A DNA stretch of 17,781 nucleotides from a virus (Duplodnaviria; Heunggongvirae; Uroviricota; Caudoviricetes), in the IMG/VR virus record IMGVR_UViG_2681813004_000011, one strand, 5' to 3'. Positions 7,872 through 15,358 of this stretch are shown here, piece after piece (within the stretch, counting starts at the first letter, position 1; each line of letters opens with the position of its first letter). Made by a program: the position numbers and the translations under genes. Below the pieces are notes generated by a model. The model was not told the origin of the DNA, ran no database searches, and saw only the letters and a program-made list of their open reading frames with translations.

Positions 7872-9232
7872 TTTCGCAGTATCCCCCTGAACATCGCCTT
7901 CACCGCATCACGCTCTGTTTCGCTTATGGCCTTATTACCGTCAGACGCGCCCTCCTGGCGTGTGCCTGACGACGTTTTCCCGGAAGACGCGAACGGATCC
8001 TCACGGGCATCACGACGGGACAGCGCCTCCAGACTGTAGTTCTGCTGCTGAAGATACAGTGCATCACCGCCGGCCAGGGGCGGCAGGTTCTCACGTTTAC
8101 GGGCCTCATTGGGCGTGAGAAGCGTATTTTTCACCGCATCCCCCAGCGTTTTCATGCGCCGCTCACTGTCCATTCTCAGCAGCGTGGTGACATCAAACTC
8201 CGTACTCTCGTTTTCCCCCGTTTCCAGCGCCTCATCCAGTAACAGTTCAATGGACTCAATCAGCGTCTGCAGGCACTGGGAATAATACTGCTGCTCCAGC
8301 GCCTCCACGTTGTCACTGGAAGGCGGCTGGCCAACGCCAATCTTGTAGGCCGGGACACGGAACACCGAACAGACAATTTCAGCGGTCATCTTCAGTTGTT
8401 CCACCGTCTGCGCATCCACAGGTGAAAACGTCGTGGGGTTGTATTTTGCCCCGTTGCTCAGAATGGCCGTTTTCCCCGCATTTTCGCCTGTATACCCGCT
8501 GTCCCAGTTGCTCTTCAGTTTTTTCGCATTTTCTTCCGTAATACTGCCGGGGATCTCAATCACCCCGGACGGCCTGCCGCCATTTCTGAAAAAAGACGTC
8601 GAATTTTCCTGAATATGATGCCCCTGCGTGGCCGCCAGCCCGGCGGCATACACCGGCGGCAATCCTATAAGCGGATGAAAAAAACAGTTAAACCGGTCGT
8701 GGATCACTTCCCGGGCAGGCACCGTCACCGCCTCCGTGATCCCGCAGTTCCGGTCCGGCGTGATGCGGTAGAACACCTCGCCGTCATCCGCCACCAGAGG
8801 TTCAACCCGGCTCCAGTCCAGAATACGCAGTTCTTTGATCTGCCCCCGGGCATTACGGATTTTCAGCACCACCGTATTGCCATGACGCAGTTTGGCGTTC
8901 AGCCACAGTTCAAAAAACTGGATGCGGTTCTGCTGGGCGTTGGGACGACGACAGAGGCGGGCAATATCCCCCCGGCGCGTTTCCCTGCGTATCCCATGCG
9001 CATCCGTCTGCATAAGACGCAGCCGCATTTTGGCGATATCCTGGGATATCAGCGAAATACATGCAAACACCGCATGAAAGGAGAGGACGGCTTCAGGATC
9101 GGCTTTCACGCCCTGCTGCCAGGCGCCGGAAAAGGGCTCAGCCACCGCCTGAAACAGGCTGGTCCAGCCCGCCTCTCTTACGTCACGTCCTGATTTCTGG
9201 TTTTTTCGGGTTCGCCGTAAAAGGTTCCACAT
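7868..9232 (-). CDS. Portal protein (HK97 family)
   Basis: 454-aa ORF with portal-family motifs as recalled: N-terminal FHAVFACISLISQDIA, central FFRNGGRPSGVIEIPG...NWDSGYTGENAGKTAILSNGAKYNPTTFSPVDAQTVEQLK, C-terminal LLRMDSERR...LTPNEARKRENLPPLAGGD, and an acidic tail. Confidence 0.9.
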   Translation of the reverse strand: MWNLLRRTRKNQKSGRDVREAGWTSLFQAVAEPFSGAWQQGVKADPEAVLSFHAVFACISLISQDIAKMRLRLMQTDAHGIRRETRRGDIARLCRRPNAQQNRIQFFELWLNAKLRHGNTVVLKIRNARGQIKELRILDWSRVEPLVADDGEVFYRITPDRNCGITEAVTVPAREVIHDRFNCFFHPLIGLPPVYAAGLAATQGHHIQENSTSFFRNGGRPSGVIEIPGSITEENAKKLKSNWDSGYTGENAGKTAILSNGAKYNPTTFSPVDAQTVEQLKMTAEIVCSVFRVPAYKIGVGQPPSSDNVEALEQQYYSQCLQTLIESIELLLDEALETGENESTEFDVTTLLRMDSERRMKTLGDAVKNTLLTPNEARKRENLPPLAGGDALYLQQQNYSLEALSRRDAREDPFASSGKTSSGTRQEGASDGNKAISETERDAVKAMFRGILRK

Positions 9233-13736: not shown

Positions 13737-13866
13737 GCAAATGTTAACTGCTGCCTGGTTAACATTTGCTGAAAAAGCCAGTTAACATTTTTTTCGCACA
13801 ACAAACTGAATAATAAAGATAAAAACCGAAAAAATGCCCGGGCAGCCAGTTAACATGTTAACTGGC
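13737..13866. promoter_or_regulatory. Cluster of GTTAAC-containing palindromes between HNH and terS (candidate terminase recognition / cos-proximal region)
   Basis: Five GTTAAC cores within 130 bp: an inverted repeat GCAAATGTTAAC-N9-GTTAACATTTGC (13737..13769), CCAGTTAACAT (13778..13788), and a perfect 22-bp palindrome GCCAGTTAACATGTTAACTGGC (13845..13866). A C8 run follows at 13941..13948. Confidence 0.45.
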
Positions 13867-14321: not shown

Positions 14322-14362
14322 GTAAAATCCCCGTCATATGGCAATCAGTAAAGGAAATAAAT

Positions 14363-14562
14363 ATGTCATCGAAAAACCGGACCCGCAGAACCACAACCCG
14401 CAATATCCGTTTCCCAATCACATGATTGAACAGATCAATATCGCCCTTGAACATAAAGGTTCCGGTAACTTTTCAGCGTGGGTTATTGAAGCCTGCAGGA
14501 GAAGGCTGGCAACAGATGCAACGCATCTGCGTCCGGCCAGCATGACAAATAACGAGAAATGA
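14363..14562 (+). CDS. Small ribbon-helix-helix-like DNA-binding protein with a disrupted reading frame (possible YlcI/YnfO-like gene)
   Basis: The ATG at 14363 has a good SD (AAGGAAATAAAT) and encodes MSSKNRTRRTTTRNIRFPIT-stop. The overlapping frame continues as NHMIEQINIALEHKGSGNFSAWVIEACRRRL... (the ORF-track call 14338..14562). One missing base in a C-run near 14415..14420 would join a basic beta-strand to two helices, an RHH layout. Confidence 0.4.
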
Positions 14563-14693
14563 ACGTTCGGTTACAGGAGCAGGTACCCACTGTCCTCCAA
14601 CAATATTTCATCTTCATACCCGGCGGAACAAGACTTACCCAGCCGGAATGTACAGAATAACAACAGAGTGATAATTAATTTCTGATGAAATAA

Positions 14694-15020
14694 TCAGGGT
14701 GCAGAAGGACTAAAGATAAACGTTTTCTTCACGCCTTTACGCGGCCTGTCCTTCTCAAATCGCCATTTTGCCATCGCCTTTACAACCTGCTCATCAAACA
14801 GATGGTGCGGCTCTGAACGGATAAACTCAATTCGGGTGACAGTACCATCAGCACCAATATCAAACTTCACATCAACCCGTCCCTTTATATAATTTGCCGC
14901 TGCATAGGCCGGATATTGTGGTAATGCCTTAACCAACTGTCGGGGCATATCTGTTTTATGTTGCGTACAGCCCATAACCAGAGAAGACAACAAAATAATT
15001 AACGGAAGATTTCTTTTCAT
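14694..15020 (-). CDS. Lipoprotein carrying a TonB C-terminal domain
   Basis: Signal peptide plus lipobox-like cysteine (MKRNLPLIILLSSLVMGC). The mature part (PQYPAYAAANYIKGRVDVKFDIGADGTVTRIEFIRSEPHHLFDEQVVKAMAKWRFE) aligns well with the E. coli TonB C-terminal domain as recalled ([56 protein letters not shown]). The likely start is the ATG at 15020; the ORF track extends it to a GTG at 15035. The region looks AT-rich by eye. Confidence 0.8.
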   Translation of the reverse strand: MKRNLPLIILLSSLVMGCTQHKTDMPRQLVKALPQYPAYAAANYIKGRVDVKFDIGADGTVTRIEFIRSEPHHLFDEQVVKAMAKWRFEKDRPRKGVKKTFIFSPSAP

Positions 15021-15040
15021 TTTCATTCCCGGCACAGATA

Positions 15041-15057
15041 AGAATAAGTCTTATTCT
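15041..15057. promoter_or_regulatory. 17-bp perfect palindrome (candidate operator) in the putative promoter of the TonB-C lipoprotein gene
   Basis: AGAATAAG-T-CTTATTCT lies about 20 bp upstream of the lipoprotein start and overlaps a -10-like TAGAAT on the minus strand, with a possible -35 TTGATG about 18 bp further upstream. Confidence 0.4.
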
Positions 15058-15358
15058 AACAATGCCACCCTGTCGGCCATCAATCCTCTGCTTAATGGCA
15101 ACGACAATTATCCGACTTAAATCACAAATCAGACACATGACATAACAGGTCTTGCGAGGTAACACATCGTCCGGTTTCTTCCACCATCGCACCGAACCAG
15201 CGACCATGAGGGGACAACGCCGCGCTCCGTTAACGCGGTAAACCCCGGTGTGTATCGTTTTTGATTATCCCCGCACACTCGCGCAGAGGAGTCTCCCTGT
15301 CGGGCTGCGGTCTCTGTTAATGAGGGAATACAGCGACGATACGGCGCATCAACAAAAC

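Follow-up and report, generated by a model that had tools for sequence, protein, structure and literature searches.

The TonB_C gene and its slot after the lysis genes

We analysed a 17,781-nucleotide (nt) stretch of DNA from a virus of the Caudoviricetes (IMG/VR record IMGVR_UViG_2681813004_000011), referred to here at its full length as the window, and concentrated on a minus-strand open reading frame (ORF) that encodes a 108-amino-acid (aa) lipoprotein with a TonB C-terminal domain (TonB_C). The identical product in RefSeq is named 'TonB family protein'. Read along the minus strand, the genes are ordered lysozyme (16125-16658), Rz (15359-15826, with a typical, proline-rich Rz1 embedded in it at 15421-15606), the TonB_C gene, a DUF3950/YnfO gene (14338-14562, on the strand opposite to the TonB_C gene), an HNH endonuclease gene, terS and terL. 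The TonB_C gene occupies the slot between Rz/Rz1 and HNH-terS-terL and has the same orientation as the late operon. An initial annotation of this DNA had placed it between Rz and the packaging genes, as we found, and had added that this is where lambda carries bor; the latter holds only approximately. Phage 21 has both genes, adjacent to each other.

The ORF begins MKRNLPLIILLSSLVMGC. Two extra in-frame starts lie upstream (ATG at 15026 and GTG at 15035) and are not conserved, the ATG at 15026 being replaced by ATA in 13 of 80 near-identical IMG/VR copies and also in alleles L002 and L003. We therefore regard the conserved ATG at 15020, which gives the 108-aa product with a stop at 14694, as the real start. 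The position of the window's Shine-Dalgarno GGGA is taken by AGGA in phage 21/L002. The features of the gene and of its surroundings are collected in Table 1.

Table 1. Features of the TonB_C lipoprotein gene and of the DNA around it, in window positions
Feature	Position	Strand	Basis
Coding sequence (CDS) of the TonB_C lipoprotein, 108 aa, stop codon included	14694..15020	-	ORF and translation; identical to RefSeq WP_000828070.1
Predicted lipoprotein signal peptide and lipidated Cys18, MKRNLPLIILLSSLVMG followed by C	14967..15020	-	PROSITE-type lipobox pattern; Cys invariant in 13 members
TonB C-terminal domain, residues 26-104, corresponding to residues 153-231 of E. coli TonB	14709..14945	-	Pfam/NCBIfam, PDB alignment, AlphaFold2 and Foldseek
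Weak Shine-Dalgarno sequence GGGA	15027..15030	-	Read from sequence; 6 nt before ATG
Degenerate Fur-box-like 19-mer GATAAGAATAAGTCTTATT	15037..15055	+	13/19 matches to GATAATGATAATCATTATC
17-bp perfect palindrome AGAATAAGTCTTATTCT	15041..15057	.	Exact; intact in 74/80 near-identical copies
Extended -10-like element TGTTAGAAT	15053..15061	-	Scoring script; 38 nt before ATG
Low-GC (43.6%) cassette, present or absent in otherwise collinear lambdoid prophages	14517..15169	.	Homology breakpoints and GC content; 653 bp

A TonB C-terminal domain behind a lipoprotein signal

The lipoprotein matched both Pfam TonB_C (PF03544; E = 5.5e-15, 56 bits against a cutoff of 24.6) and NCBIfam tonB_Cterm (TIGR01352; 2.6e-15, 56.5 bits against a cutoff of 27.1). 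When aligned with the E. coli TonB sequences in PDB, its domain ran over 79 residues without a gap, with 31 of the 79 identical (39%). The AlphaFold2 (AF2) model had a predicted local distance difference test score (pLDDT) of 87.3 overall and of 96-98 across residues 30-100; it was built from a 20-sequence alignment, a four-sequence alignment having given a pLDDT of only 57.5. The top Foldseek matches in PDB were all TonB C-terminal domains (1u07, 2gsk chain B and 2grx chain C; target TM-score 0.88-0.92, root-mean-square deviation 1.0-1.4 Å), 2gsk_B being TonB in complex with BtuB and 2grx_C TonB in complex with FhuA. The phage lipoprotein and the C-terminal domain of E. coli TonB (residues ~150-239) thus have the same fold. 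Seven residues of the TonB C terminus (Y163, F180, G186, F202, W213, Y215 and F230) have been described as functionally important by the Postle laboratory (bioRxiv 10.1101/2021.12.08.471779). All seven are kept in the lipoprotein, as Y36, F53, G59, F75, W86, F88 and F103, six being identical and one changed from Tyr to Phe.

The protein is nevertheless a member of the TonB_C domain family and not a TonB. Full-length TonB equivalog models of NCBIfam (PRK10819 type) matched only over their last ~85 positions, with 73 bits against cutoffs of 265-448; even the best of them (cutoff 315) was covered at profile positions 157-240 only, a score that places the protein outside the TonB energy transducers. 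The lipoprotein lacks an N-terminal transmembrane anchor, a proline-rich spacer and any hydrophobic segment at its C terminus. Where E. coli TonB has its anchor and spacer, the phage protein has a lipoprotein signal; it has no coupling to ExbB-ExbD, and it ends right after strand beta3. The profile matches, the alignment and the superposition of the model on TonB C-terminal domains bear out the initial annotation, which had described the mature part as just such a domain, stripped of anchor and spacer and preceded by a lipoprotein signal peptide. A search of BFVD for phage structural relatives of the lipoprotein returned nothing below E = 1e-3, and the protein matched no known defence system model in PADLOC.

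The signal peptide ends in the lipobox LVMG, followed by Cys18. A PROSITE PS51257-type pattern, which asks for a basic n-region, a hydrophobic h-region and a lipobox whose Cys falls within the first 35 residues, recognised the window protein. Of 13 family members it recognised 12; the one exception has a canonical LSAC after a Pro, and the Cys was invariant in all 13. The residue after it (+2) is Thr in the window protein and Ser, Thr or Ala in the family, and never Asp. Under the +2 rule, Asp at this position is the signal that retains lipoproteins in the inner membrane, and Thr at +2 predicts sorting of the lipoprotein to the outer membrane. Only seven residues lie between Cys18, the predicted site of lipidation, and the start of the domain.

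A family of TonB_C-only lipoproteins

An exhaustive profile search returned 6486 TonB_C proteins at E ≤ 1e-3. Near the top of the list stood short proteins of 107-133 aa that matched the lipoprotein end to end and had a lipobox at the start, a length that is maintained over 34-100% identity. Phage-borne relatives were found in the same post-spanin slot in phages unrelated to one another: in loci L006/L112, in a Serratia prophage (L104), in Klebsiella phage ST13-OXA48phi12.4 and in phage 21; in L006/L112, the gene follows an ST64B-like endolysin gene and an Rz gene with an embedded o-spanin. Other relatives are chromosomal, with no phage genes nearby, and come from Raoultella, Klebsiella sp., Serratia grimesii, Erwinia, Pantoea and Pseudescherichia; one of the chromosomal genes (P0041) adjoins ahpCF. 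The family thus consists of TonB_C-only lipoproteins of about 107-133 aa, whose genes lie on chromosomes of Enterobacterales and, in repeated instances, immediately behind the lysis genes of their prophages.

The initial annotation had left it undecided whether such a family had already been characterised. Annotators have recognised the domain before, as in 'partial tonB-like membrane protein encoded within prophage CP-933N', 'TonB fragment' and, for the phage 21 allele, 'TonB C-terminal domain protein'. Its function is the subject of no study that we found in the full-text literature, queries by accession number included.

A conserved moron-type gene

Homology between the window and PPyecE_EH1910, a collinear phage without the gene, ends at 14516 and restarts at 15170, and many Stx2 phages match only from 15169 onwards, into Rz. 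The cassette between these breakpoints differs from its surroundings in base composition: the CDS has 44% GC, compared with 55.6% in Rz, 55-56% in terS and 55.3% in the whole window, in keeping with the AT-richness that had been remarked on at the outset. The interval therefore behaves as a moron-type insert, present or absent and deviant in composition, and it sits in the part of the genome behind the lysis genes that is rich in morons. We read the TonB_C gene as accessory cargo of the moron type, carried by a lambdoid (Stx1-phage-like) prophage.

The gene is under purifying selection. Ratios of nonsynonymous to synonymous divergence (dN/dS, Nei-Gojobori) between the window allele and three 71-72%-identical alleles (phage 21, L002 and L003) were 0.12-0.16, with dS above 1, and the ratio between two of the three sister alleles was 0.21. 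On these ratios, we rejected a pseudogene or tonB fragment. A decaying, non-functional piece of a captured host tonB could be suspected, as only the C-terminal third of TonB is covered and annotators have used the label 'fragment', but we consider it scarcely credible. Besides the low dN/dS, the protein has a bona fide lipoprotein signal, with an invariant Cys, that TonB lacks; the family keeps its length over a wide range of identity; operators are kept upstream of most relatives (see below); and 39% identity to the host TonB argues against a recent capture.

The window allele was present in 417 of 5426 complete E. coli genomes, chromosomal in every case, and in the Stx1a-converting phages Lys8385Vzw and JLK-2012; Stx1a-converting phages are also the closest relatives of the window. 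A 71%-identical allele was found in 1225 of the 5426 genomes, including that of the type strain. Up to about 30% of the complete E. coli genomes have the TonB_C gene.

In the classical lambdoid phage 21, the 71% allele lies after bor and before cosQ. There, as in the prophage of E. coli ATCC 11775, bor/iss on the opposite strand adjoins the TonB_C gene (L108, phage 21, 3227-4327; L111, E. coli ATCC 11775, 2238-3338). The two genes stand side by side, and the TonB_C gene is therefore a neighbour of bor and not its replacement. Wherever the phage-21-type arrangement holds, iss-positive strains carry the TonB_C gene as a silent neighbour. Lambda Bor and E. coli Iss are likewise products of small lipoprotein morons between lysis genes and cos; they differ in strand, the TonB_C gene being oriented with the late genes, and in lacking any sequence or domain similarity. 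The two types co-occur and are not alternatives.

This proximity raises the question of whether the lipoprotein is itself a virulence or serum-resistance protein of the outer membrane that, like Bor and Iss, acts on the animal host. Carriage by Stx1-converting phages would fit such a role, as would the Fur boxes described below, iron regulation being common among virulence genes. We nevertheless hold it to be very improbable: the protein has no similarity to Bor or Iss and matches only TonB_C families, the +2 rule points to the periplasm rather than to the cell surface, and homologues occur in plant- and insect-associated Erwinia and Pantoea.

Palindrome, promoter and Fur boxes

The 17-bp perfect palindrome which had been reported over the putative -10 of the gene is exact and overlaps the extended -10-like element. 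A poor -35 (TTGATG, 15078-15083) lies 19 nt upstream of the latter, and a strict consensus scan found no promoter at this site. The same TGTTAGTAT element stands ahead of the Fur box in L006/L112, a distant phage allele. Shuffled sequences contained 0.57±0.79 palindromes with arms of at least 8 bases, compared with two in the window, and the 17-bp palindrome alone is not remarkable. Upstream of the phage 21, L002 and L003 alleles its right arm is absent, while the -10-like half persists (CAGAAT, TAAAAT). We therefore rejected the palindrome as a conserved operator of the family. We also rejected it as a shared CI/Cro (immunity) operator, as a search of the first 50,000 of the 50,953 bases of Lys8385Vzw found one occurrence and no second copy, even with three mismatches allowed.

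Unlike the palindrome, Fur boxes recur across the family. The 19-bp consensus GATAATGATAATCATTATC and the 7-1-7 motif TGATAATnATTATCA against which we scored them are said to go back to de Lorenzo in 1987 and to Baichoo and Helmann in 2002. Of the 20 family loci, 12 had a site within 26-65 nt of the start with at most two mismatches to the 7-1-7 box, compared with 4 of 1305 background windows of 150 nt; at most of the 12 loci, the box stands directly after a TAGTAT or TATAAT -10. All 15 further IMG/VR phage contigs, from two clades, had a box with 0-1 mismatch. Between L112 and L120 (81% identical), the box differs only at the free N position, while its flanks diverge. Near-consensus boxes on or next to the -10 were seen in most phage-borne and chromosomal relatives (L112-L126, L006 and L093-L107). 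In all likelihood, the wider family, prophage copies included, is regulated by Fur and iron.

The window allele departs from this pattern. Its 19-mer matches the 19-bp consensus at a level seen in 3.7% of background 150-nt windows; its hexamers are arranged forward-forward-reverse as in a Fur box, the last base of each being G where the consensus has T, and its five mismatches to the 7-1-7 motif are at background level. The phage 21 allele has no Fur box. The E. coli lambdoid alleles (window and phage 21) appear to have lost the box, that of the window being a putative degenerate remnant. The proposal that the palindrome is itself the regulatory site thus drew little support, its right arm not being conserved and its copy single, whereas regulated expression as such gained from the Fur boxes that relatives carry at the same place. 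According to Calderwood and Mekalanos, who reportedly described it in 1987, stx1 is a Fur-controlled prophage cargo gene. The phage-borne relatives resemble stx1 in carrying consensus Fur boxes over their promoters; the window allele, with its degenerate Fur-like site alone, differs from cargo of the stx1 type.

The spanin label and late expression

PHROG 1267, labelled 'Rz-like spanin' (category lysis), matched the lipoprotein over its full length (E = 1.9e-42). We investigated this label together with the wider idea that the protein is a late-lytic helper of lysis or virion release, made from the late transcript and acting on the outer membrane or on peptidoglycan, or blocking receptors during the release of progeny. 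The gene lies directly after the spanin genes, in late-operon orientation, in all the phage contexts that we examined. A simple consensus scan detected no terminator on either side of it, neither in the stretch from Rz to the gene nor downstream, where the fold was unremarkable (z-score -0.39).

However, a complete spanin pair is already present in the window, in phage 21 and in L112, and a separate candidate o-spanin lipoprotein is present in L104 and L109. Because each phage examined thus has an o-spanin, embedded or as a separate candidate, the PHROG 1267 label is a misnomer, probably an annotation error that spread through the position of the gene. We rejected a spanin function: besides the separate spanins, the mature protein is a globular TonB_C domain, it lacks a C-terminal transmembrane segment, and it is not proline-rich like Rz1, so that it does not qualify as an o-spanin. 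As for a late-lytic role more broadly, homologues sit on chromosomes without phage context, phage copies appear to have a Fur-controlled promoter of their own, which would imply expression in lysogens, and the gene is missing from otherwise collinear phages and is thus not needed for lysis. We judge such a role improbable.

Possible interference with TonB-dependent uptake

Our preferred reading, a tentative one that we regard as quite possible, is that the lipoprotein acts as an unenergised TonB decoy and interferes with TonB-dependent uptake. The initial annotation had likewise proposed competition with TonB for TonB boxes and exclusion of TonB-dependent phages or colicins, which the seven retained residues and the engineered TonB fragments described below make plausible. 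Anchored in the outer membrane on a seven-residue tether, the domain would be placed at the periplasmic face of TonB-dependent transporters. There it could bind TonB-box strands, either of the transporters or of incoming group B colicins, by TonB-like beta-strand addition through its beta3 edge. Without a link to ExbB-ExbD it could transmit no energy, and it would be an unenergised competitor or decoy; alternatively, it might form dead-end mixed dimers with TonB. Phages (T1/phi80 type), colicins and microcins that depend on TonB would then enter less readily, and siderophore uptake would suffer to some degree. In most relatives, the Fur operator on the promoter would make the protein appear when the receptors are derepressed. 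In the window, the Fur box would have decayed into a different palindrome, and expression would probably come from the retained extended -10 and from late-operon read-through.

The closest experimental parallel is found in engineered periplasmic TonB fragments, which share the design of a TonB C-terminal portion placed in the periplasm without an energy-coupling anchor. Those fragments are artificial, soluble and over-expressed, whereas the phage protein is natural, has a predicted lipid anchor in the outer membrane and is 39% identical to TonB. Besides acting on iron import, periplasmic TonB fragments were reportedly found by Howard, Herrmann, Stratilo and Braun in 2001 (J Bacteriol 183:5885) to inhibit phi80 infection and killing by colicin M, and the shortest active fragment is said to be longer than the phage domain, at about the last 118 residues. 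As cited in PMC9841981, an overexpressed periplasmic TonB domain inhibits iron import via TonB-dependent transporters (Howard 2001) and a TonB-box pentapeptide lowers phi80 infection and colicin killing (Tuckman & Osburne 1992).

Other phage lipoproteins are known to act on a TonB-dependent transporter. Llp of T5, a lipoprotein of the outer membrane, attaches to FhuA and causes the plug and loops EL7/EL8 of the receptor to rearrange, so that access to it is blocked. Llp shares its fold with prophage Cor proteins, and the authors of that study suggest a common strategy of superinfection exclusion against TonB-dependent transporters (bioRxiv 10.64898/2026.03.26.714494). A 2024 review of superinfection exclusion mentions only Cor, at FhuA. 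Llp and Cor (of phi80/N15/HK022-type prophages) are, like the TonB_C lipoprotein, small phage-encoded lipoproteins of the outer membrane, and their context is similar. They are specific for FhuA and of demonstrated function; a TonB domain might in principle engage any TonB box. Their fold is a different one: we found no homology or fold match to Llp or Cor in Pfam, PHROG or PADLOC, nor among the 50 listed Foldseek matches in PDB.

Several points weigh against a decoy. TonB-box binding by this protein is so far a prediction. R158, Q160 and R166 of TonB, which we take to be TonB-box or plug contacts or suppressor positions, are changed in the lipoprotein, to K31, L33 and Y39, and the family alignment varies from member to member at the first two (the equivalents of R158 and Q160). 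Transporters greatly outnumber TonB in copy number, and a TonB-box decoy would therefore have to be very abundant. They also compete for limiting TonB (bioRxiv 10.1101/2021.12.08.471779 and PMC9841981). The J protein of the carrier phage has a lambda-J-like tip, with 51% identity to lambda J at the C terminus, and a phage that lacks the gene has this J as well; self-exclusion via a TonB-dependent receptor is therefore not indicated. This comparison of J tips revealed no link from the gene to a TonB-dependent receptor of the carrier phage. From its co-orientation with the late operon and the lack of a terminator in the simple scan, the protein may be made mainly late in lytic growth. Finally, it looks paradoxical that iron starvation should induce a pure inhibitor of iron uptake, and that chromosomes of Raoultella, Serratia, Erwinia and Pantoea should also keep one.

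That paradox keeps a helper or modulator in play, or else points to incoming colicins and microcins, whose TonB box might be the true target. The protein could be a positive, iron-regulated accessory of TonB-dependent uptake which pre-organises or protects TonB boxes, tethers transporters to peptidoglycan or modulates signalling, giving the lysogen an iron or fitness benefit. Fur boxes in most members, chromosomal loci without nearby phage genes included, would suit an accessory, as would the retention of the genes on the chromosomes of several genera; an inhibitor of iron uptake that appears when iron is scarce seems counter-productive. Yet with no connection to ExbB-ExbD the protein cannot energise transport; its sole experimental analogue, the periplasmic TonB fragments, is inhibitory (as cited in PMC9841981); no TonB-dependent transporter gene lies beside the family loci examined; and the Fur box appears to have been lost in the E. 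coli prophage alleles. On balance, we consider an accessory role unlikely.

A broader version of the decoy reading takes in the whole family. The lipoproteins would then be natural, mostly Fur-regulated, outer-membrane-anchored, dominant-negative TonB decoys of Enterobacterales and their prophages, which blunt the entry of TonB-dependent phages, group B colicins and siderophore-microcins at the very time when iron starvation crowds the outer membrane with receptors, may capture the toxin's TonB box instead of the transporter's, and provide a generic, receptor-independent exclusion, unlike Llp and Cor. We regard this version as possible but doubtful.

If the lipoprotein is a decoy, a single small prophage gene would change how sensitive the cell is to a whole class of phages, colicins, microcins and siderophore-conjugated antibiotics, and it could change iron uptake too. 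Its carriers include Stx-converting and iss-carrying prophages of pathogenic strains. A decoy would also bear on phage therapy, on Trojan-horse antibiotics that enter via TonB-dependent transporters and on competition in the gut, and a natural, membrane-tethered, unenergised C-terminal domain would offer a tool for TonB research. Whatever the mechanism, two results are of use: the PHROG 'Rz-like spanin' label is probably wrong for this family, and the Fur regulon appears to include the wider family.

Other features of the window

Directly downstream of Rz lies a non-coding block of ~190 bp with GC-rich hairpins (15170-15355). It is 94-97% conserved in Stx phages without the TonB_C cassette and ~70% conserved in phage 21. 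It had no match in Rfam to a known RNA element, and the RefSeq annotation of a near-identical prophage (L001) has no gene in the matching interval.

Upstream of the lysozyme gene, a minus-strand ORF of 329 aa (16695-17684, ~45% GC) has an N-terminal DUF1327 domain. L001 has a YdfR family gene in the interval from holin to lysozyme and a KilAC antirepressor gene in that from lysozyme to Rz. The ORF at 16695-17684 looks like another swappable cargo slot of the lysis region.

In the portal region (6646-9232), the reading frame is split into two ORFs, 6646-7593 and 7868-9232, where the annotation of L001 has one portal gene of 2580 nt. Internal repeats at 7094-7707 self-align at an offset of ~162 bp in the comparison with L001.

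The strongest palindrome of the window, a perfect one of 22 bp (GCCAGTTAACATGTTAACTGGC, 13845-13866), separates the HNH endonuclease gene from terS. It may serve the HK97-like packaging module of the window as a cos site or as a recognition site for terminase.

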